DNA of 64,000 nucleotides. Source: Candidatus Nealsonbacteria bacterium (GTDB taxonomy: Bacteria; Patescibacteriota; Minisyncoccia; Minisyncoccales; RBG-13-36-15). Where the stretch lies: contig DRFQ01000001.1 of the NCBI GenBank assembly GCA_011050465.1, positions 114,860-178,859 on the forward strand, given 5' to 3'. Below are positions 12,791 through 62,629 of the stretch, one piece after another. The notes under the pieces are model-generated. The model had not been told where the DNA came from. It saw only the letters and a list, made by a program, of their open reading frames with translations, and searched no databases. The stretch's first letter is position 1. Every line of letters starts with the position of its first letter. A program made the translations under genes and the position numbers.

Positions 12791-12801
12791 TAAATTTAAT
12801 G

Positions 12802-12875
<74 letters not shown>

Positions 12876-44062: not shown

Positions 44063-44090
44063 TTGACAGAGTGTCTTAAAAATCTATAAT
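44063..44090 (+). promoter_or_regulatory. Consensus sigma-70 promoter (TTGACA-16 nt-TATAAT)
   Basis: ccTTGACAgagtgtcttaaaaatcTATAATag, about 100 nt upstream of the small acidic ORF. Confidence 0.5.
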
Positions 44091-44413: not shown

Positions 44414-46333
44414 ATGGCTCAAAGAAAATACTATCGCCATACTTTTCGAAAGAAAGAAAAGTATAAATTGCTTTTAAAAATCTTATCTGGTTTTCTTTTT
44501 TTTATTGTTGCTATCTTTCTAATGGTCGCTTTTTTGTTTGTCTTTTATGCCAAAGATTTGCCTCGTCCGGAAAAATTTACCGAACGTACTTTCATTGAAT
44601 CTTCAAAAATATTTGACCGTTCAGGAGAAATTCTCTTATATGAAATTTATGGAGAAGAAAGAAGAGAAATTGTCCCCATAGGTATTGTTCCCGAATATTT
44701 GAAAAACGCTGTTATTGTTACGGAAGATATCGAATTCTATCATCACTTTGGTATCAGCTTTAAGGCAATCGCCCGAGCTATCCTGATCGATTTGAAATTA
44801 GGAAAACCGGCTCAAGGAGGTTCTACAATTTCTCAACAGTTAATCCGTTCCTCATTTTTAACTCCCTCGAAAACGGCAAAAAGAAAAATTCGAGAAATTA
44901 TTTTGACTCTTGAGCTAGAAAGACGTTATTCTAAGGAGCAAATTTTAGAATTTTATTTGAACCAAATCCCTTTTGGCGAGAACGCTTATGGTGTCGAAGC
45001 TGCCAGTCAGGTTTATTTTGGAAAATCGGTTTCAAACATCTCGATAACAGAAGCTGCTATTTTAGCTAGTTTAATCCAGGCTCCCAGTCGTCTCTCACCT
45101 TACGGAGAACATAAAGAAGATCTTCTAATAAGGAAAGATTATGTTTTAGAGAAAATGGCAGAATATAATTTTTTAACCCAAGAAGAAGTCGAAGACGCAA
45201 AGAGCCAAACCTTAAAATTTATTTCTCCTCGTCTTATTAAAGCTCCTCATTTTGTTGTATATGTGAGAGACTACTTGCTTAATCAATATAGTGAGGATTT
45301 TTTAAAAGAAAAAGGGTTAAAGATAATAACTACTTTAGACTGGGGGCTACAAAAATGGGCAGAAGAAGTGGTGCAGGAAGGAGCCCGAATTAACCAGGCG
45401 TCACGAGCTCATAATGCTGCCCTAGTGGCTATTGATCCAAAAACTGGAGAAATTTTAGCGATGGTGGGGTCGAAAGATTTTTGGGCCGATTCTTATCCTG
45501 AAAACTGTATGCCTGGCGAAAATTGTCTTTTCGATCCTCAGTATAACGTAGCGACTGGAATTTCCGGTCGTCAACCAGGATCAGCTTTTAAGCCTTTTGT
45601 TTATGTTACCGCCTTTAAGAATGGGTATTCAGACGAAACAATTGTGATTGATGAAAAAACTGATTTCAATGGCTATATCCCTCAGAATTATGATGGAATT
45701 TTCCGTGGGGCTGTAACTTTAAGAGAAGCCTTGGCGCAGTCTCTTAATGTCCCTTCAGTCAAAGTTCTGGCTAATTTTGCCGGCGTAGAAGATTCAATAA
45801 AGACCGCAAAGAGCTTTGGAATTACCACTTTGAATCAACCTCTTTCTTATTATGGCTTATCTTTAGTTTTAGGAGGAGGAGAAGTAAGGCTTCTTGATAT
45901 GGTCTCAGCATACGGAGTTTTTGCCACCGGCGGCTTTCGGTTCCCGCCGAGAAACATATTAAGAATAGAAGACTCTTCGGGGAATATCCTTGAAAAAAGA
46001 GAAAATAATGGCCGGAGAGTAATGAATCCCGAACCAATTTATTTAATCAACAGTATTCTCTCTGACAATGAGGCCAGGGCTCCAACATTTGGTTTAAATT
46101 CTCTTTTATATTTTAAAGACTATCAGGTGGCGGCCAAAACCGGCACGACCCAAAACTATAAAGATGGTTGGATTATCGGTTATACCTCTTCTATTGTCGT
46201 TGGAGTATGGGTTGGCAACAACGATAATTCTCCAATGTATGAAAAACCCGGAGTTTCCGTGGCTGCCCCTATATGGAGAAGATTTATAGAAAAAGCTCTT
46301 CTAGAATTTCCTAAAGAGCTTTTGTTTGAATAA
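44414..46333 (+). CDS. Bifunctional penicillin-binding protein 1A (glycosyltransferase GT51 + transpeptidase)
   Basis: 639 aa; N-terminal TM; GT51 motifs 'TEDIEFYHHFGI', 'GGSTISQQL'; transpeptidase 'SAFKPF', 'SLN', 'KTGTT'. Confidence 0.85.
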   Translation: MAQRKYYRHTFRKKEKYKLLLKILSGFLFFIVAIFLMVAFLFVFYAKDLPRPEKFTERTFIESSKIFDRSGEILLYEIYGEERREIVPIGIVPEYLKNAVIVTEDIEFYHHFGISFKAIARAILIDLKLGKPAQGGSTISQQLIRSSFLTPSKTAKRKIREIILTLELERRYSKEQILEFYLNQIPFGENAYGVEAASQVYFGKSVSNISITEAAILASLIQAPSRLSPYGEHKEDLLIRKDYVLEKMAEYNFLTQEEVEDAKSQTLKFISPRLIKAPHFVVYVRDYLLNQYSEDFLKEKGLKIITTLDWGLQKWAEEVVQEGARINQASRAHNAALVAIDPKTGEILAMVGSKDFWADSYPENCMPGENCLFDPQYNVATGISGRQPGSAFKPFVYVTAFKNGYSDETIVIDEKTDFNGYIPQNYDGIFRGAVTLREALAQSLNVPSVKVLANFAGVEDSIKTAKSFGITTLNQPLSYYGLSLVLGGGEVRLLDMVSAYGVFATGGFRFPPRNILRIEDSSGNILEKRENNGRRVMNPEPIYLINSILSDNEARAPTFGLNSLLYFKDYQVAAKTGTTQNYKDGWIIGYTSSIVVGVWVGNNDNSPMYEKPGVSVAAPIWRRFIEKALLEFPKELLFE

Positions 46334-47679: not shown

Positions 47680-49032
47680 TTATGCACTGAAAATCCGCTG
47701 GCGAATTAGGTTTAATTCCTCTTTTAAATTTTCATTAGAATTAAGTTCTTTTTTGATTTTTTCGTAGGAATGGATAGCAGTAGTGTGGTCTTTCCCCCCT
47801 ATTTTCCTCCCAATGAAAGGGAATGAATTTTTTAATTCTTCCCTTAAAAAATAAACAATAATTTGTCTTGGTTGAACAATTTCTCTCTTTCGAGACGAAG
47901 ATAAAATATCTTTCTCTTTTACGTCATAAAATTCAACAACCGTTTGGATTATTTTTTTAGGACTGACTATTTTTTTAGGAGACTGAATTAAATTTTTCAA
48001 AAGATTTTTTGTAATCTCTAACCCAGGAATTTGCTTATTTAATTTTTGGAAAGCAATTAACCTGTTAAGGGCACCCTCTAATTCTCTGATATTCCGTTGA
48101 ATATTATTGGCTAAATAAGTCAAAATTTCGTCTGAGAAATTCATTTTTCTTTCCTGGGCTTTGACCTTGAGAATAGCTATCCTTGTTTCGAAATCAGGCA
48201 AGCCAATATCGGCTATCATTCCCCCTTCAAACCTTGAACGTAATCTTTCTTCGAGAGAAGGGATGGCTTTTGGGGGACGATCAGAGGAAAGAATTATTTG
48301 TTTGTTATTTTCATACAAAGTATTAAAAATATGAAAAAATTCTTCTTGGGTTTTTTCTTTGCCAGCCAAGAACTGGATGTCGTCAATAATTAAAACGTCT
48401 ACCTGACGATATTTATTTTTAAAAGCTTCTACATTATGGTTGCGAATGGAGAGGACAACCTCAGAAGTGAATTTCTCGGACGGTATGTACTTAACCTTTT
48501 TTGAGGATAATTTTTTTGTCACCTCGTTTCCGATTGATTGCAAAAGATGGGTTTTGCCCAGGCCGACACCGCCGTATACAAACAAAGGATTATATACTAA
48601 CCCCGGCTCTTTGGCGACAGCAATGGCCGCGGCATGGGGCAGTTCGTTGAAAGAACCAACGATGAAATTTTCAAACGTATAACGAGGATTTAGGTTAGTT
48701 GTTTTATCAATCTTAAACTCCGAAAACTCCAATTGATCAGATTCCGGCATGGTAATAGTTTCTTTCATACGAAGACCTTTTGGTTGTATAGATTCAACAG
48801 AGTATTTCACCTCCTTAATTTCTCCATCAAGGCTGCGAAGAGTTGTTAAGATTAATTTATGATATTTGTTTTCTATCCATTCTTTTGAAAAAGAGTTAGG
48901 GACAGCAATTTGAACCTCATTCTCCTTTTGAGAGAGAATATTAGTGTTTTTAAACCAAGTTTCGAAATTAGCCGGAGAAATATGAAATTGAATTTGGGCA
49001 AGGACAGCTTGCCAGAGTTCTTCTTGTTGCAT
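47680..49032 (-). CDS. dnaA: Chromosomal replication initiator DnaA
   Basis: 450 aa; AAA+ 'GGVGLGKTHLLQSIGN', 'LIIDDIQFLAGKEKTQEEFFHIFN', C-terminal DNA-binding domain 'VQPRQIIVYF...GGKDHTTAIHSYEKI'. Confidence 0.9.
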   Translation of the reverse strand: MQQEELWQAVLAQIQFHISPANFETWFKNTNILSQKENEVQIAVPNSFSKEWIENKYHKLILTTLRSLDGEIKEVKYSVESIQPKGLRMKETITMPESDQLEFSEFKIDKTTNLNPRYTFENFIVGSFNELPHAAAIAVAKEPGLVYNPLFVYGGVGLGKTHLLQSIGNEVTKKLSSKKVKYIPSEKFTSEVVLSIRNHNVEAFKNKYRQVDVLIIDDIQFLAGKEKTQEEFFHIFNTLYENNKQIILSSDRPPKAIPSLEERLRSRFEGGMIADIGLPDFETRIAILKVKAQERKMNFSDEILTYLANNIQRNIRELEGALNRLIAFQKLNKQIPGLEITKNLLKNLIQSPKKIVSPKKIIQTVVEFYDVKEKDILSSSRKREIVQPRQIIVYFLREELKNSFPFIGRKIGGKDHTTAIHSYEKIKKELNSNENLKEELNLIRQRIFSA

Positions 49033-51339: not shown

Positions 51340-52830
51340 CTACATACCTTTTTTAATAACCGGAATAACTAACATAGCTCTTGTTTGGTTATCACCAATA
51401 TGGTTATCTTTAAGCCTGATATCACTCGCCGTAAACACTTCTCCTCTTCCATCCCCTCGGAATAAAACAGCACTAAAATTACCTTCAACTCTCAGCGAGG
51501 AGATTCCGTTACTATCAGTAAAGGTTGGACACCACCCCGCATCTATCCACTGGGGATAGTCTAGGGCCATTGGCGGGATAGGATAAATACCACACTCAGC
51601 CCCATTCTCATCTTCGTTAAAATTATAATTTTGATAAAGAGTTATTCCTCCAGAAGGTAAAGAGCTATCTGGTGGACGCTGAACAAAAACACTGATTGAT
51701 GAAACTCTGTCTTTTTCGACGTGCTCGACACAATATGAGTTATCCATACCAATAAGAGGATTACATTCAGGGATTGCACCTCCTTCGCTTAAGGGAATAC
51801 ATCTTGGAGGCCATTCGTCAATTGTGCCACCAAAAAAGACCTCAGCATCGCCTCGGAAATCATTGTGTTCGTGCAGAACTGCTCCGAGCTTACCGACGAT
51901 GACCATTTCTCCTCTACAACACTGTGGATTAATGTTACAGTCGATAACCCATGGCCCAGGGCATAAACCATCATCCCACACTAAATTTTCCGGCTTTTCT
52001 ATTCTTCGTGGTATTATTTTAATCGATTTGGCTTTGTTGTCAAAATTTATAGAACCACTCAAGTCAGACACGCTGCTTGTAAAAAGATGAGGATCTGCTT
52101 TACAACCGTCATCAGAGAAAAGATAAACCCCGGGCATTTTCCAGATTAATCTAACAGATTGGCTGTTTCCACTGATTGGTTTACAATCATCTCCATCATG
52201 ATCATCAGATTCCCAAGGTGTTCCTTCATAATTTTCTTCAGGGAAAATTTTGATCTCCATTTCTTCTGCAGAATCATAAAAATAAACTGATGTGGCCTCA
52301 TTGTTGAAGTCTCCCAGCGAAGAATAGTTGCTTCTTACTCTTAAAAAGTCTTCTCCCTCTATTAATCCCGAAGTGTCACTTTTGAGAGAATTACAATCAA
52401 TTCCCGGCCTTTCTTTGTACAAAATAACCCCTTTATTAAATTCTACTTTTCCTATTTTTAAAACCACCAACTCCGGATTAAGTTGGATTAAAATGACATA
52501 AGCAATAAGTAGAATAATTAAACCTAAAATGCCAGCTGTAATCTGGCTTTTGGCATCAGATATGGCTAAAGGGTTGCCGGCTGAAGCTAAATAGCGAAAG
52601 CCGCCGTAAACTAAACTACCAAAAGTAACCAAAGCGGCAATAAGCAAGGCGAGATTGAACAGATATTTAATATAATCTGGTAAAAAAGTTTTGACTGTCC
52701 TTGGGGTTTCTGCCCCCGAAACCTGAGGATAATCCACTTCTGTTTTTTGCGCCAGCGCTAAGCCGTTCAAAACCAAAAAACAGAAACTGGCAAGAATCAA
52801 AATTAAAAAGATTTTTTTAAAGCTTTTCAT
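51340..52830 (-). CDS. Secreted Cys-rich protein with N-terminal VirB2/TrbC-like two-helix pilin module
   Basis: 496 aa; signal peptide; 'LPDYIKYLFNLALLIAALVTFGSLVYGGFRYLASAGNPLAISDAKSQITAGILGLIILLIAYVILIQLNPE' (helix-loop-helix); C-terminal domain with about 16 Cys. Confidence 0.6.
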   Translation of the reverse strand: MKSFKKIFLILILASFCFLVLNGLALAQKTEVDYPQVSGAETPRTVKTFLPDYIKYLFNLALLIAALVTFGSLVYGGFRYLASAGNPLAISDAKSQITAGILGLIILLIAYVILIQLNPELVVLKIGKVEFNKGVILYKERPGIDCNSLKSDTSGLIEGEDFLRVRSNYSSLGDFNNEATSVYFYDSAEEMEIKIFPEENYEGTPWESDDHDGDDCKPISGNSQSVRLIWKMPGVYLFSDDGCKADPHLFTSSVSDLSGSINFDNKAKSIKIIPRRIEKPENLVWDDGLCPGPWVIDCNINPQCCRGEMVIVGKLGAVLHEHNDFRGDAEVFFGGTIDEWPPRCIPLSEGGAIPECNPLIGMDNSYCVEHVEKDRVSSISVFVQRPPDSSLPSGGITLYQNYNFNEDENGAECGIYPIPPMALDYPQWIDAGWCPTFTDSNGISSLRVEGNFSAVLFRGDGRGEVFTASDIRLKDNHIGDNQTRAMLVIPVIKKGM

Positions 52831-54176: not shown

Positions 54177-56414
54177 TTACCAGCATAAAGCAGGGTCATC
54201 TCTTCGATCAGGACCGCAAATCCCAGCAGTCCAATCGGGAGCTGCATCAACACATTCAAGTTGTACACATTCTGCCGGGTAAGGATTTACTGTGTCTGGA
54301 AAATAACCCATATGGAGGTGGTCGCCTTCACTAAAACCAGTATCATCGACATGGCCAATTAAGTCTCCTTTCAAGATTCCTATGCTGGCTTCATTCGCAA
54401 GACATATATTCTCGCCACAGGTGTCTAAAAGGTGGCAATAGCGAAATTCGCCGAATTCTGTAAAAAGTCTAATGGCAATACCACAGCTGCCAAAAGGATG
54501 ATAAGCAGTAATCGTACCATCAGCTACTGCATAAACAGGATCGCCTCTTGCGGCAGAAAGATCAATTCCATGATGCCCGGGATATCCTTCCCAGCCGCAG
54601 GTAAAACCAAAACCAGGCTGAAGGGGACAACCCGCTAATTCGGGAGGCAGAGGACCGCCGCCGCCAGGGGCTGTCGTGGTGCAGCTGCCCGTAGGATATG
54701 CCGGGTTTTCTTCAGCTTCTTGCTCGCCAAGATCAGGGAACAAGCTGATATAGAGTGGAAAAAAATTGGGCCAAAAGTTGGGGTTATTGGAAAGGGTGCA
54801 ACTAGCTCCTCCTGACCAACAGCGCATAAAAGAACAAAAGTCAGTGTTATCTTCTCCGCAAAAACCGCTACAATTACTTACTATGTCGAGGAAACATTGT
54901 AATTGGGCAGGAACGCCCCGGCCAGCTGGGCAGTCTACTATTCCTAAAGTCCAACAGAGTTCACCGCCAATATCGCACGGCGTACCATCATCATCAAACC
55001 CAGACTCTTCTCCCCACATAGTTAAAATCAAAGCTTGGTTCCAGTTGTTAGCTTGCGCCCAGTTTACTATATAATCCCAGCAATCAATTCCACCAGGACA
55101 GGTTGTGTTTTTTATTGTCGGATATGTAGCAGCTAAATCTTCTTTGATGCTTGCTGGTATGTCAAAATCATTAAAATAGAGGTCAATTTCGCACTCGTTA
55201 CAACCAGCGAGGGTATCTAAGATGGGGAAGGAAGGCCAACCCCCGCTGGCCATTAGCTCTTTTACTTGTTCTTCGTCAGTATAAAAAGTAGCAGGGTCGC
55301 CTTTTCCCCTAATCGTCTGGCCCAAAAAAGTAAAGGGAACAATCTCCACATCTCCGCCCAGTTCCAGTATAATCTGTTTCATCTCCAACATATTGTCGTA
55401 ATTTATGGGGTAAATCGTTTCTCTGATGATTTTTATCCCTAATTCTAATCTCTGGTTATCTTTTTTGAAACTGGTCAGATCGGGAAGTATTGCTTCCATT
55501 TCAGCCGCCAAAACCGCAGCCAGATTGCGAATATCTATTTTTAGATTTTCAGCGTCATCTCGTTTATCCAAACAAGGTTCGCCCGTGCAAATCACTGGCT
55601 CTGGATCCCAGTCCTGACAGGGACCTCCACAAAACTCAACGTCTAAACAGGGATCACCTGCACATTGCATCGGCAGACAATAATTTAACCCAAAATCAGG
55701 AGGAGGATCAGCACCGGATTGTCCAAGATCGCACTCTGAAGGATCGGGTTCGGTGTTGCCGCATACATTACAAGGATTATTGATTATGTCTTCAAATTGG
55801 ATTGTTTTGTCGGAAATTTGTGCTGAGAGGTTCTTAATGCTCTGGGCAGAACTATTGAGTCGATTTAGCCTGTTTGATTCTAAAACCCTTTCGATTAACT
55901 TTCCAATGGGAATTTCATAGAGTCTATAAACTTTGGCCGTTAACTGAAGCGGTTTAATTGGCACCATACAAACTCCACCATTACATTCCTGGCCTTCGTA
56001 ACAATCTGCATCAACACTGCATTCTAAGGCGAGGTCAAGAGGGCCGATGCGTAAAATGGTTAATTCGGGGTTAACAGCCACTAAAAATAAATAAGAGCCC
56101 AGTAAAATCATTAAACCGACAATTCCAGCTGTGATTTGGTCTTTGGCGTCTGACATGGCAGCTGGTTGGCCTACTGAAAACATATAACGAAAGCCGCCAT
56201 ATATTAGAGAGAAAAAAGCTATCAGGCCGGCAATAATTAGTGCGAAGTTATAAATATATTTTATATATTCCGGCAAAGTAGGTTCTGCCGGAAGAGGCGC
56301 TCCCGGGATGGTTGGATAGGTAACCTCTAAGTCCTGGGCAAAAACAAAAACAGCAAAAAACAGGAGGAAAGAAACTAAAAAAATTAATTTGTATTTTTTT
56401 ACTTTCTTGTTCAT
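54177..56414 (-). CDS. Secreted protein: VirB2-like pilin module + Cys-rich region + C-terminal M23 (LytM) peptidase
   Basis: 745 aa; N-terminus 'LPEYIKYIYNFALIIAGLIAFFSLIYGGFRYMFSVGQPAAMSDAKDQITAGIVGLMILLGSYLFLVAVNPE' paralogous to the 496-aa protein; M23 motifs 'HHGIDL...DPVYAVADG' and 'GDHLHMGYF'. Confidence 0.7.
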   Translation of the reverse strand: MNKKVKKYKLIFLVSFLLFFAVFVFAQDLEVTYPTIPGAPLPAEPTLPEYIKYIYNFALIIAGLIAFFSLIYGGFRYMFSVGQPAAMSDAKDQITAGIVGLMILLGSYLFLVAVNPELTILRIGPLDLALECSVDADCYEGQECNGGVCMVPIKPLQLTAKVYRLYEIPIGKLIERVLESNRLNRLNSSAQSIKNLSAQISDKTIQFEDIINNPCNVCGNTEPDPSECDLGQSGADPPPDFGLNYCLPMQCAGDPCLDVEFCGGPCQDWDPEPVICTGEPCLDKRDDAENLKIDIRNLAAVLAAEMEAILPDLTSFKKDNQRLELGIKIIRETIYPINYDNMLEMKQIILELGGDVEIVPFTFLGQTIRGKGDPATFYTDEEQVKELMASGGWPSFPILDTLAGCNECEIDLYFNDFDIPASIKEDLAATYPTIKNTTCPGGIDCWDYIVNWAQANNWNQALILTMWGEESGFDDDGTPCDIGGELCWTLGIVDCPAGRGVPAQLQCFLDIVSNCSGFCGEDNTDFCSFMRCWSGGASCTLSNNPNFWPNFFPLYISLFPDLGEQEAEENPAYPTGSCTTTAPGGGGPLPPELAGCPLQPGFGFTCGWEGYPGHHGIDLSAARGDPVYAVADGTITAYHPFGSCGIAIRLFTEFGEFRYCHLLDTCGENICLANEASIGILKGDLIGHVDDTGFSEGDHLHMGYFPDTVNPYPAECVQLECVDAAPDWTAGICGPDRRDDPALCW

Positions 56415-59443: not shown

Positions 59444-59863
59444 TTATTTCGTTTTGAGTTCAATTTGAGTTGATAAATCTTTTAAACGGCCTTGCTTGGT
59501 TATTTTCAATAAAGCAGCTGGTTCGGCTTTTTCTTTTCCGGCCTTTACTTTTTCTTTTTTATAAACAAGCCTTGGCTCTGTTTGTTTTTTTCTCCAGGTA
59601 TAGACTTTCGATGAAATATTAAAAAATACAAAGCTTATTAATACGCTTAACAAGGGCCGGTTCCCAATTTTAATTAAGGCGAAGCTGAAGGCTGTAATTG
59701 CCAGAATAAAAGCAATGACAAGGAAAAGGTAAAAATTACTTAAGATAAAATAGAGAAAAAAAATAATAATTCCAGCTCCACCAAGAAAAATAAACTGGCG
59801 CCAAGTAAAAGGACCAACTATCTTCGTTTCCATTTCAATAAATTGGGGAATAGAAAATTCCAT
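59444..59863 (-). CDS. PrgI/VirB3-like two-TM membrane protein
   Basis: 139 aa; 'VGPFTWRQFIFLGGAGIIIFFLYF' followed by a second TM and a basic tail. Confidence 0.4.
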   Translation of the reverse strand: MEFSIPQFIEMETKIVGPFTWRQFIFLGGAGIIIFFLYFILSNFYLFLVIAFILAITAFSFALIKIGNRPLLSVLISFVFFNISSKVYTWRKKQTEPRLVYKKEKVKAGKEKAEPAALLKITKQGRLKDLSTQIELKTK

Positions 59864-60004
59864 GTTGTTATTTATCTTTAAGAATAAAAAACTATTTAAT
59901 TAAACCGCGCTAAGTAATTATCTTAATTATATCACAAACAAAAAATAGTAGTAAATAACATCAAAGACAATAAACATCAAGGCGTCAAAAAGAAGACATT
60001 GTTA

Positions 60005-60032
60005 TTGACAAATTATGAGGGTATGCTATAAT
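60005..60032 (+). promoter_or_regulatory. Consensus sigma-70 promoter (TTGACA-16 nt-TATAAT) driving a structured leader
   Basis: atTTGACAaattatgagggtatgcTATAATac. Downstream leader contains hairpins ggagagagc...gctctctcc, ccgcaacaatgcgg and ctccgag-taat-ctcggag before the AGGGAGG RBS. Confidence 0.55.
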
Positions 60033-60232
60033 ACAGGCGTAAGAGGAGAGAGCAAGTATTTTCATATTAAATTCGTCATAGACGGCTCTCTCCGAGGGCC
60101 TTGTTTTTTAGGAGAGTTCTTTTTTCCGCAAAGTTCATCGAAATTGGTGGATTCTACGGAGAGAAAAACGAATTTCCGCAACAATGCGGACTCCGAGTAA
60201 TCTCGGAGAAAAAGAACAGAAAGGGAGGAAAA

Positions 60233-60586
60233 ATGGAATCCAATTCTGGCTTTGTTGTTGATGCTGGGTTTATCCTGGGAATGGTAGGCAATTACCTTGT
60301 CCTGGGGATCTTCATCCAGCGGGCAGTGGGGAAAGAAAGGTGCGGGGGTGCTCTCTGCACTTATCAAGCTTCCCACCATCCCGGGATTGAGGGTAGCCAT
60401 AGCAGCATCGCTTGGCCTCGACGGCTGGCAATCATTGTCGGCTGGCTTCCCTGGTTCGTACTCCGTGTTATCCGCTTTGTCTTCCAGACTCTGGGTTGGA
60501 CAATCAGCAGGTTCCGTCCTCGGAGGATCTGGATGAGCCTTTGTGTCACAGGCCGAGCGGTGCGCTGGACAGTCCAGGGCACCTAA
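60233..60586 (+). CDS. Possible small two-TM protein encoded in a 58%-GC islet (alternatively a structured RNA)
   Basis: Strong SD 'aagggaggaaaaATG'. 118-aa ORF 'MESNSGFVVDAGFILGMVGNYLVLGIFIQ...LAIIVGWLPWFVLRVIRFVFQTLGW' has two hydrophobic helices. All six frames are open here because of GC-richness, so coding status is unproven. Confidence 0.3.
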   Translation: MESNSGFVVDAGFILGMVGNYLVLGIFIQRAVGKERCGGALCTYQASHHPGIEGSHSSIAWPRRLAIIVGWLPWFVLRVIRFVFQTLGWTISRFRPRRIWMSLCVTGRAVRWTVQGT

Positions 60587-60751
60587 TACCAAGGGGAGGA
60601 GGGCCTCATGATTCGTAGTCGATGAGACCGCGATCTGGCCTTCCCCCCTTACCCAATTTTTCTAGCAAAGAAAATTTTTAAACTATTTAACATTATCTAA
60701 TCCGAGGAAGTCCTAAAAGGGGCTCTTTTTTATTTTTGTATTAGCAAAAAC

Positions 60752-60779
60752 TTGACAAAAAACTTAAATCTTATATAAT
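60752..60779 (+). promoter_or_regulatory. Consensus sigma-70 promoter (TTGACA-16 nt-TATAAT) for the SPFH gene
   Basis: cTTGACAaaaaacttaaatcttaTATAATtaaa; RBS aggaggtgcaaaATG. Confidence 0.5.
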
Positions 60780-60845
60780 TAAAAAGCTAAGAAAAGGAGA
60801 AATCTTGGCAAAAAGTTATTTAACAACTGCATTAGGAGGTGCAAA

Positions 60846-62018
60846 ATGGTAGCAACGATAGTAACTGGAATAGTCTTCGGAGTAGTCTTCCTTTCACTCT
60901 TCACCATTGTCTATATAAAGTTAGGATGGTGGAAGTTTCCCATAATACCCCAGATAGTGAAGCCAGAAGAGATGGCAATAAAAGTTATCCTGGGAAGACC
61001 AGAAGAGTTTTTCGACAGCGGCCTTCGCTGGATTCCTCTCTGGTTTAGCTCTCTCAGAAGGTTTCCCAAAACGATGTATAACCTGGATTATCCGGCCAGA
61101 GAGGCTGTGACTAAAAGAGAAACGATAGATGGAATAGAATATGGAGCCCAGGTATTAAAAGTAGATTCAGTAGCTTATGTGAGCTTCCCGCAGTGCTACG
61201 TATGGCTTCGGTACAAAGACCAGCAGGGGAAACTGCAAATAGCGAGGGTGAACAGCGAAACGGCCCTAACAAAGAAAAAAGATGAACTCAAGAAAGCAGG
61301 AATGACAGACATTGAAGCCAAAGGCGGGCTTGTCGAAATATACCGGCGACAGATTCCCATTGACGAAGGAAAGCTAAAGGATTTCACTGGAGAGGCAATA
61401 GTCGCAGCCCTGCGTGTAGCTATGGGTAAGGTTACCTGGAGACAGGCAACCGAGGATATTGAAGACGTTAGAAAGGCAGCTGAGGACGTTTTTAAGTCTA
61501 GCGATGGTGCTTTGCTTGCGGCAGGATTCCATCCAGACGATTTGAGACTGGCTATTGAGGAAGTAAAGCTTCCTCAAGAACTGGAGCAAGCTCTGCCAGG
61601 GCCCGACAGGGCAAGGCTAGAGGCTCAAGCGGCAAAGTTTGTTTCTCAGACTCGGGCCACCGAAACGGTCGGAACAGTCATTGAAATGATGGCTCAAAGC
61701 AGAGGCAAGTCGCTTCAGGAAGTTCAGGCGGAAATTGAAGCTGACCCCGACGCCAGAAAGGAATTCCTAGCCCTGTCCAAGGACTTGATTGTTCGAAGGA
61801 TGGGTCTTGACAAGAATGCCTACCTTGACATCCGGGTAGAGGGAGCCGATGGAATTGAGAAATCTCTCTTGAACCTTGTTGCTGCCTGGCAAAGAATGCC
61901 AGGGGGCGGAAAAGAAAAAGAAGAAAAAGAAGAAAAAAAAGGCCGTAGAAGAGTCCGCGTTCCAGGCGGAACCAGAGAGATGGATGAAGAAGAGAGAAGA
62001 AGGTATGGGATACCCTAA
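60846..62018 (+). CDS. SPFH/band-7 (stomatin/flotillin-like) membrane protein with charged C-terminal tail
   Basis: 390 aa; N-terminal TM 'IVTGIVFGVVFLSLFTIVYI', SPFH-like core, Ala/Glu-rich coiled coil, 'KEKEEKEEKKGRRR' tail. Codon usage (ATA Ile, AGA/AGG Arg, about 48% GC) differs from neighbouring genes. Confidence 0.55.
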   Translation: MVATIVTGIVFGVVFLSLFTIVYIKLGWWKFPIIPQIVKPEEMAIKVILGRPEEFFDSGLRWIPLWFSSLRRFPKTMYNLDYPAREAVTKRETIDGIEYGAQVLKVDSVAYVSFPQCYVWLRYKDQQGKLQIARVNSETALTKKKDELKKAGMTDIEAKGGLVEIYRRQIPIDEGKLKDFTGEAIVAALRVAMGKVTWRQATEDIEDVRKAAEDVFKSSDGALLAAGFHPDDLRLAIEEVKLPQELEQALPGPDRARLEAQAAKFVSQTRATETVGTVIEMMAQSRGKSLQEVQAEIEADPDARKEFLALSKDLIVRRMGLDKNAYLDIRVEGADGIEKSLLNLVAAWQRMPGGGKEKEEKEEKKGRRRVRVPGGTREMDEEERRRYGIP

Positions 62019-62068
62019 TTATAAAGGGGCGACTACTGTCGCCCCTCTTTTGTTATTTATATCAATAT

Positions 62069-62629
62069 TTATTCAAATGGTTCCCGGTAAGTATCTTCTT
62101 TCCGCGGCATAGGTTTTTCTTCTTCTAAGGGAGTTTCAGGCTTTTCTATTTTTGGTGGAACAGTCTCTGGTTCAGATGGAGCCGGAGTTTTTAAGGATTC
62201 CTCTGGCGGCGGAGGAGCAACTGGCAGAGGTTTAATCGGAACTCTTTTCCTGGTAAGAGGAGTAATTTCCCTTTCGATTACGACTTTTCTGGCAAAAGTA
62301 AGAACGTTTTTCTCAAGGTCTTTAGCTAAATCTTTTGCAATTTTCGGAGAAATATTAAAAATTTGCCGAAGTTCTTCTGGAAAATCCTTAATCATTATTT
62401 TTTCCTCAGCCATATCCTTGATAAGTCTTGCTATTTTTCTTTCCGGCTGTTTTCCAGTAATTTTCTCCTTTTCTTTAAAAGTTTGAGCTTCTTTTAACTC
62501 TTGTGCCAACTTCTCCATTATTTCTTTCGGCTCTCTGTGCAGTTTATACTTTTTCAGTATTTCTTGGATGACAAAATGAGATTCGTCCGGGAAAATTATT
62601 TCTTGATTTTTGGATAGTTTTTGAGCCAT
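62069..62629 (-). CDS. Hypothetical protein with Pro-rich C-terminus (type-IV locus)
   Basis: 186 aa; charged helical N-terminal half, 'PLPVAPPPPEESLKTPAPSEPETVPP' tail. Confidence 0.45.
   Translation of the reverse strand: MAQKLSKNQEIIFPDESHFVIQEILKKYKLHREPKEIMEKLAQELKEAQTFKEKEKITGKQPERKIARLIKDMAEEKIMIKDFPEELRQIFNISPKIAKDLAKDLEKNVLTFARKVVIEREITPLTRKRVPIKPLPVAPPPPEESLKTPAPSEPETVPPKIEKPETPLEEEKPMPRKEDTYREPFE

Follow-up and report, generated by a model that had tools for sequence, protein, structure and literature searches.

A GC-rich islet in the type IV secretion locus of a Nealsonbacteria genome: a probable native accessory module with a replaceable small-gene cassette

Why do two adjacent genes within a type IV secretion system (T4SS) locus differ so sharply in composition from the genes around them? 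The genes lie at 60000-62050 of a 64-kb stretch of DNA from Candidatus Nealsonbacteria bacterium (contig DRFQ01000001.1), hereafter the window. One is a small gene rich in G and C and the other, just downstream, encodes an SPFH/Band-7 protein. A sequence-only reading of the window had taken the pair for a horizontally acquired foreign islet inserted between T4SS genes. Comparison with related loci suggests a different answer. We consider it probable that the pair is a native two-gene accessory module of a chromosomal, dnaA-proximal T4SS locus, in which the GC shift is maintained, the small-gene unit is replaceable, and the SPFH protein serves as a scaffold with the small protein as its partner or specificity factor. 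The module comprises the following features, where 'family A' denotes the small-gene family to which the window gene belongs.

60005..60032, plus strand: promoter P1 of the small gene, TTGACA-16-TATAAT with an extended -10 TG, TGCTATAAT (12/12 match)
60039..60232, plus strand: structured 5' leader of the small gene, with four hairpins (60045-60093, 60116-60169, 60175-60190, 60191-60208)
60223-60228, plus strand: Shine-Dalgarno (SD) sequence of the small gene, GGGAGG
60233..60586, plus strand: small membrane-protein gene, 117 aa, family A, assigned from homologues, selection and a conserved frame
about 60591..60650, plus strand: GC-rich 3' hairpin directly after the small-gene stop, basal stem GGGGAGGAGGGCC / GGCCTTCCCCCC
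60704..60735, plus strand: intrinsic terminator of the small gene, hairpin 60709-60724 followed by TTTTTTATTTTT
60752..60779, plus strand: promoter P2 of the SPFH gene, TTGACA-16-TATAAT
60786..60845, plus strand: 5' untranslated region (UTR) of the SPFH gene, with hairpin GCTAAGA 60786-60792 / TCTTGGC 60803-60809, conserved motif TTTAACAAC and SD AGGAGG 60834-60839
60846..62018, plus strand: SPFH/Band-7 gene (Pfam PF01145), 390 aa, with a predicted N-terminal transmembrane anchor, a K/E/R-rich C-terminal tail and a GC content at third codon positions (GC3) of 0.46
62025..62046, plus strand: terminator hairpin between the convergent SPFH and 186-aa genes, 9 pairs of which 7 are G-C, then a T-run

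The module in related genomes

The compositional anomaly was confirmed. The interval 60235-60654 is the GC-richest 420-nt stretch of the 64 kb, at 0.567 compared to a mean of 0.372 (standard deviation 0.048), and GC reaches 0.58 at 60300-60600 in surroundings of 0.30-0.40, in agreement with the roughly 58% noted for 60230-60650 from the sequence alone. Measured against 47 other genes and open reading frames (ORFs) of the window, whose mean GC3 is 0.32, the small ORF is an outlier in codon usage (z = -8.9, GC3 0.61) and so is the SPFH gene (z = -4.0, GC3 0.46). ATA and G/C-ending codons are enriched in the SPFH gene as had been claimed, whereas the claimed difference in AGA/AGG did not hold, at 48/19% compared to 47/18% in bulk, which is normal. 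GC within the SPFH gene is highest in its 3' half, away from the small gene.

To place the module among its relatives, homologues of the SPFH protein (22 found, one of them named from Candidatus Nealsonbacteria, PF01145 being precomputed for most) were traced to their contigs (loci labelled L below), and further metagenome loci were added; some of the family A loci are short contigs, and the homologue in L017 is from Saccharibacteria. A scan of a genome collection for SPFH relatives returned 2 loci. The order PrgI (minus), small GC-rich gene (plus), SPFH (plus), ~180-aa gene (minus) and TrbL (minus) was found, covered in whole or in part, in L001-L005 and on the contig of the homologous protein P0032. 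In L013, L014, L019, L020, L034 and L043, which are shorter contigs or have no gene table, the small gene lies directly upstream of the SPFH gene. With L015 added, the loci with the module at the same position are L001-L005, L013-L015, L019, L020, L034, L043 and the P0032 contig, and the foreign-islet claim was given up. Both consensus promoters are kept at equal relative positions in the small-gene loci, wherever the sequence covers them. More distant loci (L007-L012 and L021-L033) have an SPFH gene that adjoins T4SS genes without a small gene, and a recognisable PrgI gene stands beside it in only some of these (L007, L008/L009).

The related SPFH proteins are 46-67% identical to the SPFH protein of the window, and the window's T4SS proteins are 52-79% identical to those of the loci that carry a second small-gene family, B, described below. 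The small gene has a GC3 of 0.53-0.65 in every locus that carries it, and the GC3 of the SPFH gene exceeds that of the adjacent genes by about 0.1 in the seven loci for which these were tabulated; synonymous sites are saturated. Because the GC shift is kept in orthologues despite this saturation, it appears to be a maintained property rather than the trace of a recent import. Mobility signatures were not found: the flanking ORFs have no integrase or transposase domain, there are no flanking repeats, and the sole tRNA of the window lies at 12801-12875. A distant blastn search with the segment and the leader gave no phage or plasmid match, and a phage or plasmid origin was rejected. The GC-rich segment, conserved protein included, thus occupies an equivalent place in orthologous genomes, the pattern that the sequence-only reading had named beforehand as the mark of a native gene. 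Judged from these comparisons, the GC-rich islet is a conserved native two-gene accessory module of the T4SS locus and not foreign DNA.

The GC-rich piece itself had been read as either a small membrane protein of 118 aa or a structured RNA. The protein alternative stood, with the length corrected to 117 aa, and the RNA alternative fell. HMMER, run exhaustively over 1.84 billion representative proteins, recovered three true homologues of the 117-aa ORF (P0032 at 62%, P0033 and P0034; 38-62% identity), and a profile search added P0036-P0038, giving a range of 38-66% for all homologues. The members of family A have in common the start, the motifs C-x-G-x(2-3)-C, HPG and GW, and a QGT that ends the protein just before the stop codon; SD, start and stop are conserved. 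Pairwise ratios of nonsynonymous to synonymous change (dN/dS) are 0.10-0.41, with proportions of synonymous differences (pS) of 0.57-0.75, near saturation. It had also been claimed that every reading frame is open across the GC-rich segment; in fact four frames hold 3-7 stops, which leaves the sense frame (to 60584) and a single antisense frame open. The sense frame is the sole frame that is open in every family A relative. The antisense ORF of 176 aa (60062-60592) was rejected, its frame being interrupted in L015, L045 and L014. Three Rfam searches were made: at the gathering score (Rfam 15) the window has tRNA only, and at E <= 10 nothing credible was found across 60030-60850, only sub-threshold noise (MicX, mir-46, leuA-Halobacteria). 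Together, the homologues, the purifying selection, the conserved frame and the lack of an Rfam match indicate that the GC-rich segment is a small membrane-protein gene and not an RNA gene.

The encoded protein is predicted to have an N-terminal transmembrane helix, a loop of about 30 aa, a long second hydrophobic or amphipathic helix and a basic C-terminal helix ending in QGT, from hydropathy and an AlphaFold2 model of low confidence (predicted local distance difference test score, pLDDT, 60.6). The conserved C-x-G-x(2-3)-C and HPG motifs lie in the loop. The composition is unusual, with R 10.2%, K 0.8%, G 11.9% and W 5.1%, and the gene has a GC content of 0.56. The protein had no match in Pfam (even at E <= 10), NCBIfam, PADLOC or PDB sequences. 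Small genes of this kind are called in L001, L005 and in short Logan and ENA contigs, and are uncalled in L002-L004. The NCBI annotation apparently misses the 117-aa ORF, whose exact sequence is recorded from Logan assemblies only.

Not all loci with a small gene at this position carry family A. Families were classified by hidden Markov model (HMM) in 15 loci, and family B, with the signature RLWPRWRD-x-EG-x-IR-x-NPLH-xx-EAIFWP, was found at the same position in L001-L005, L020, L034 and L043; in the last three the family B gene and both promoters lie directly upstream of the SPFH gene. Family B also behaves as coding sequence, with third-position synonymous changes across the motif and dN/dS of 0.10-0.30, and pS lies within 0.57-0.77 for both families. 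The family B HMM found nothing in any of the six frames of the window (2.5 bits), and hhalign of A against B gave a probability of 2.9%. Homology of the window ORF with the family B genes was rejected on these grounds, and the two are treated as positional analogues. They are alike in size, in the preference for Arg over Lys, in richness in Trp, in GC3 and in the predicted series of transmembrane helix, loop, long helix and short helix. Fold or sequence relatives of the A and B proteins were sought and set aside: the AlphaFold2 models (pLDDT 60.6 for A and 80.2 for B) are both generic helical hairpins, and Foldseek of the small-protein models against PDB returned nothing under E = 3.

The boundaries of the exchangeable segment can be placed at the two promoters. 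When the family A locus L014 was compared with the family B loci L002/L003, the flanks were 65-100% identical, on the left through PrgI, the intergenic region and P1 and on the right through P2, the SPFH 5' UTR and the 5' end of the SPFH gene. From the -10 box of P1 to the -35 box of P2 the sequences cannot be aligned (30-50%). In a tree of the SPFH proteins the small-gene loci group into a single clade, within which A and B intermingle: the window (A) is sister to L001 (B), and L014 (A) falls within L002/L003 (B). The interleaving of A and B on the tree, with flanks that are nearly identical, suggests that the cassette was exchanged between lineages. On this evidence the cassette, consisting of SD, ORF and 3' hairpin/terminator, is judged to have been swapped at least twice by recombination in the conserved promoter flanks. 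The exchange appears to be homologous recombination within the clade via these flanks. At their N-termini the SPFH proteins of L014 (A) and L003 (B) hardly differ, and the TrbL, PrgI, 186-aa and SPFH proteins of the window are ordinarily similar to their counterparts in family B loci, with only one family A locus reaching as far as TrbL.

Two further observations concern individual family B genes. In L034 (1896-2253) the gene is broken across two frames, its HMM hits falling into two pieces that overlap, and is either a frameshifted pseudogene or an assembly error. The genes of L002 (3818-4135) and L003 (4518-4823) differ by a dS of 0.06 and a 12-nt in-frame deletion, with dN/dS of about 1.1 from few differences, and this pair may be under relaxed or diversifying selection at short range.

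Transcription signals and neighbouring genes

Both consensus promoters reported in the sequence-only reading are present. The one at 60005-60032 matches at 12 of 12 positions and the second lies at 60752-60779. Perfect TTGACA-N16-TATAAT sites occur three times in the 64 kb compared to 0.03 expected from shuffles, and two of them are in the module. The third lies at 44063-44090 on the plus strand, upstream of a 639-aa ORF at 44414-46333. An equivalent of P1 stands at the matching relative position in the family A and B loci that reach that far (read directly in L014 and L045) and forms the left boundary of the swappable cassette. P2 forms the right boundary and is conserved upstream of the SPFH gene in nearly all related loci.

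The ATG at 60233 lies about 195 nt downstream of the P1 -10 box. The leader is as rich in hairpins as had been described and precedes a strong SD: it holds four hairpins and folds with a minimum free energy of -65.9 kcal/mol (z = -5.0). Most of it is an insertion of about 155 nt (roughly 60055-60212) that contains all four hairpins and is specific to this genome, the only one from which it is known. In L015 and L045, the nearest relatives within family A, the leader measures 40 nt, and it aligns with a clean gap at window positions 60061-60210. A second copy of the insertion was sought in the window and in every fetched locus and was not found, and a repeated or mobile element was rejected; the leader had no Rfam match. 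Within it lies a terminator-like hairpin at 60084-60100 with a U-run, UUGUUUUUU (to 60109), whose 5' arm is shared with the 3' arm of hairpin 1; an attenuator-like alternative folding is possible.

The GC-rich tract extends past the stop codon of the small gene because a conserved 3' hairpin stands there. This hairpin is present in L015, L013 and L019 and readable in L045. It is predicted to have 21 pairs, 4 of which stay paired although both bases have changed, and the sequence of the basal stem is conserved despite saturated synonymous sites in the ORF. A mini-ORF (MIRSR) with an SD lies inside the hairpin in the window, L015, L045 and L013, and is absent from L019; it was judged incidental. 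Equivalents of the small-gene terminator, a hairpin with a T-run, were found in L013, L015 and L019. The small gene and the SPFH gene are split by a terminator (60704-60735) and a second promoter (60752-60779), and in the relatives that cover this interval a terminator hairpin and a second promoter lie there too.

The SPFH assignment in the sequence-only reading was borne out by Pfam, in which Band_7 (PF01145) matched at 30.7 bits compared to a cut-off of 23.6, with residues 37-108 aligned to profile positions 2-71, so that the match covers the N-terminal part of the domain only. The hydrophobic N-terminus, MVATIVTGIVFGVVFLSLFTIVYI, was read directly from the translation. Searching PDB sequences with an SPFH profile produced matches to TAL-effector repeats (best E 1e-9) in which no single stretch was significant, and these were judged a spurious summing artefact. 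The summed matches come from profile positions 243-276 (about 61570-61680 in the window) and probably reflect a short helical motif matched over many repeats.

A 5'-proximal hairpin also stands upstream of the SPFH gene in L001-L004, L007, L013, L014, L019-L021, L023, L024 and L026. Its sequence varies and its pairing appears to be kept, for example as GTCAAGA/TCTTGAC in L001 and as CCAAGGAA/TTCCTTG in L007 and L021. After the hairpin follow a conserved TTT(A/T)A(C/A)AAC motif and AGGAGGTG. The hairpin and the TTT(A/T)A(C/A)AAC motif recur in most loci, several of them without a small gene. The SPFH 5' UTR looks like an mRNA-stabilising or regulatory leader.

The position between T4SS genes, given in the sequence-only reading, was upheld. 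VirB4, TrsD and PrgI/VirB3 lie on one side and a gene of about 186 aa and TrbL/VirB6 on the other, and the module genes are on the strand opposite to the T4SS genes. The neighbouring genes that matter here are the following.

59444..59863, minus strand: PrgI/VirB3-like T4SS gene (Pfam PF12666), divergent from the small gene, left flank; in the same place in L002-L004 and L007-L009
62069..62629, minus strand: ~180-aa (186-aa) gene, right flank, always between SPFH and TrbL; 58-67% identical to its counterparts in L001-L003
62646..63977, minus strand: TrbL/VirB6-like T4SS gene, weak Pfam TrbL/TrbL_4 match, probably truncated by the end of the window
47680-49032, minus strand: dnaA-like ORF, found by its GGVGLGKTH motif

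The ~180-aa gene (62069..62629) had no Pfam or NCBIfam match. It and its orthologues share a conserved N-terminus, MAQKLSKNQEI..., and have a GC3 of 0.22-0.29, at or below the genome level and in sharp contrast to the adjacent SPFH gene. Orthologues of the TrbL-like protein are 570-680 aa long and carry PF19590 (TrbL_3). The dnaA-like ORF is about 11 kb from the module, about 3 kb from the nearest T4SS-like gene and about 8 kb from VirB4. T4SS loci of Patescibacteria have been reported to be dnaA-proximal (PMC12102498), and the place of dnaA at 47680-49032 agrees with this.

Other members of the locus also deviate in composition. Two large proteins with T4SS-pilin-like N-termini, one with an M23 peptidase (54177-56414, minus strand) and one with an uncharacterised region (51340-52830, minus strand), are encoded at a GC of 0.44-0.46, above the genome mean. 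A PDDEXK_3 nuclease-like gene with a GC of 0.28 lies between VirB4 and TrsD in L003 (2811-3203) and between TrsD and PrgI in L004 (3452-3853). The window lacks this gene, which is apparently a mobile or variable insert in the T4SS operon.

Origin of the GC excess and role of the module

To separate the sources of the GC excess in the small gene, its composition was rebuilt stepwise. GC rises from 0.368 in bulk to 0.456 when its amino acids are encoded with the usual codons and to 0.556 as observed, so that about half of the excess is due to amino-acid composition (Arg in place of Lys, Gly, Trp) and about half to synonymous choice. The favoured synonymous codons are ATC, CTG/CTC, AGC and GGC/GGG. 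The coding sequences fold somewhat better than dinucleotide shuffles (mean z about -2.2; 9 of 10 negative). We infer that the shift is maintained either by selection for abundant, stable, structured mRNAs or by a recombination-linked GC bias. The former option fits because the module has consensus promoters, strong SDs and terminal hairpins.

A recent import, in which the small gene and the SPFH gene came from a higher-GC donor, were inserted between the T4SS genes and kept the donor's composition, would explain the strong composition and codon outliers, the strand opposite to the neighbours and the module's own promoters and terminators, and would accord with a small-gene cassette that was demonstrably replaced in evolution. 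We nevertheless regard it as very unlikely. Arrangement and composition recur where the SPFH proteins are only 46-67% identical and synonymous sites are saturated, the SPFH gene stands at this position even in loci without a small gene, and family A was found only in this context, with no higher-GC donor lineage in the exhaustive search of 1.84 billion representatives. Integrase, tRNA and flanking direct repeats are lacking, as is any phage or plasmid match. That the GC-rich segment is a structured non-coding or dual-function RNA in which the ORF is incidental seems more improbable still. No Rfam family was found at E <= 10, pS is far above the proportion of nonsynonymous differences with dN/dS of 0.1-0.4, start, SD, stop, QGT and protein motifs are conserved at 38-66% identity, the sense frame alone stays open, and the saturated synonymous sites argue against a conserved structure across the coding sequence. 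These points outweigh the high GC in an AT-rich genome, the dedicated consensus promoter and terminator, the folding of the 681-nt transcript (z = -4.5) with mostly negative z-scores for the coding sequences, the compensatory changes in the conserved 3' hairpin and the fact that the NCBI annotation apparently leaves the ORF uncalled.

Two further explanations concern the slot itself. The GC enrichment could be a side effect of GC-biased gene conversion, with the cassette slot acting as a recombination hot spot, and not stem from selection on expression or RNA. The GC-rich tract does coincide with the segment exchanged by recombination, all three codon positions and the amino acids (Arg over Lys, Gly) are shifted towards GC, and the shift affects both unrelated families. 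The SPFH gene, however, is GC3-shifted also in loci without a cassette (L007, L008, L010) and has its GC peak in the 3' half, away from the cassette, and the flanking promoters and UTRs at the breakpoints stay AT-rich, so that we hold this explanation to be unlikely. Somewhat less probable again is that the two cassette types are alternative specificity alleles of the T4SS, for exclusion, immunity or self/non-self recognition, with the SPFH gene merely a neighbour. Here two discrete, non-homologous small inner-membrane proteins share one slot with near-identical flanks and a patchy distribution on the tree, as a balanced polymorphism would produce; entry-exclusion proteins are likewise small membrane proteins in discrete groups matched to a T4SS partner (PMC2791158), and the existence of cassette-less loci marks the gene as accessory. 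Against this, Patescibacteria T4SS loci mostly lack relaxases and are thought to be non-conjugative (PMC12102498), and a corresponding division into two groups was seen in no partner gene: between A and B loci the SPFH N-terminus, PrgI and TrbL are ordinary, although only one family A locus reaches as far as TrbL. There was also no similarity to known Eex, TraS or TrbK models in the libraries searched, which are not specific for them. A variant that brings in the SPFH scaffold, in which the slot is a balanced dimorphism and the Arg/Trp-rich, GC-recoded proteins are alternative self/non-self, exclusion or host-range determinants acting with it, seems to us similarly doubtful. If true, it would amount to an undescribed accessory layer of the machinery for the epibiont lifestyle.

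The native accessory module would work as two units. The first would consist of an extended -10 promoter, the leader, a strong SD, a 117-aa Arg/Trp/Gly-rich helical-hairpin membrane protein, the 3' hairpin and an intrinsic terminator, and the second of a consensus promoter, a 5' UTR with a 5'-proximal hairpin, a strong SD, a membrane-anchored SPFH/Band-7 protein and a terminator. The small-gene unit would be a replaceable cassette bounded by the two conserved promoters. The SPFH protein may oligomerise into a scaffold in the membrane and so organise or stabilise membrane components of the T4SS, and the small protein may be its membrane partner or specificity factor, like the small partners encoded beside prokaryotic SPFH genes. 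SPFH proteins are membrane-anchored oligomeric scaffolds, and in prokaryotes their genes are usually accompanied in the operon by conserved partners such as NfeD (PMC2636767). Full function of the Cag T4SS of H. pylori requires a flotillin-like protein (PMC5460342), and T4SS components of Agrobacterium co-fractionate with SPFH proteins (PMC8656257). A dedicated SPFH scaffold for the Patescibacteria T4SS with a small helical-hairpin partner or specificity factor is likely the most economical reading.

Several points weigh against this proposal. We infer the function, the interaction and the transcription of the module from sequence. The Agrobacterium study also describes the association of the T4SS with detergent-resistant membranes as independent of SPFH proteins (PMC8656257). 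The small proteins match neither NfeD nor any other family (Pfam, NCBIfam, PADLOC, PDB). The SPFH assignment is a modest Pfam match confined to the N-terminal third (30.7 bits), and a profile of 14 homologues recovered no SPFH structure among PDB sequences at E <= 0.01. As read from the terminator and second promoter between them, the small gene and the SPFH gene are separate transcription units and not an operon. Distant loci have the SPFH gene without a small gene, and the small protein is therefore not an obligatory partner. The SPFH tree that places A and B is a crude neighbour-joining tree, and some of the family A loci are short contigs. As to composition, none of a few markers of high expression (EF-Tu, DnaK, RpoB, ribosomal protein S12 and others) turned up in a motif search of the window, which recovered only dnaA, and either of the forces named above may keep the GC shift.

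Comparison with known systems

The module resembles the SPFH pairs of the NfeD-stomatin and QmcA type (PMC2636767, PMC4208085) in that a gene for a small membrane protein directly precedes, in the same orientation, the gene for an SPFH protein that carries, here by prediction, a membrane anchor, with the adjacency conserved in a clade. In contrast to these pairs, the small proteins here have no NfeD/OB-fold domain (PF01957), neither A nor B having a Pfam match at E <= 10, and their AlphaFold2 models are all-helical. In contrast to NfeD-type operons, separate consensus promoters and a terminator lie between the genes, two unrelated families occupy the slot, and the whole is embedded in a T4SS locus. 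By these features the module is not an NfeD-type pair.

The two cassette types also recall the Eex/TraG exclusion system of SXT/R391 (PMC2791158), where a small membrane protein encoded in a T4SS cluster exists in two discrete variants among close clusters. The Eex variants are homologous, whereas no homology could be detected between A and B; here no partner was seen to co-vary, the system is probably non-conjugative, and there is no sequence similarity between the two. With acquired genomic islets the module shares a local GC and codon anomaly, sharp boundaries and cassette replacement. It differs from them in that the anomaly is conserved through saturating divergence and in the lack of mobility genes, tRNA and repeats. 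This is a caution for composition-based island calling, since a sharp GC and codon anomaly is here a conserved native property, and small genes of this kind are missed by automated annotation. A GC3 of 55-65% in two unrelated genes within genomes of 32% GC3 also poses a tractable question on local composition in tiny genomes.

The closest comparison is with the MPF-FATA-like T4SS loci of Patescibacteria, or the candidate phyla radiation (CPR), as surveyed in 2025 (PMC12102498). These loci likewise have VirB4, TrsD, PrgI/VirB3, VirB6/TrbL and a pilin-like-M23 peptidase fusion, with KsgA nearby in relatives, and are chromosomal and near dnaA. The main text of the survey names no SPFH/Band-7 gene and no small proteins as locus components, whereas here, in many loci, the SPFH gene and the ~180-aa gene lie just upstream of VirB6 among the T4SS genes, and in the closer loci VirB3 and VirB6 flank them directly. 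The T4SS genes of Patescibacteria belong to the small number of functions with a proven essential role in epibiotic growth, and how they act is not known (PMC12102498). What remains of interest in the islet is a conserved, unannotated accessory module of a CPR T4SS with a two-state small-gene cassette and a stable compositional anomaly. Its SPFH scaffold gene, together with the ~180-aa gene and the swappable cassette, are candidate parts of the T4SS machine beyond those listed in the survey.

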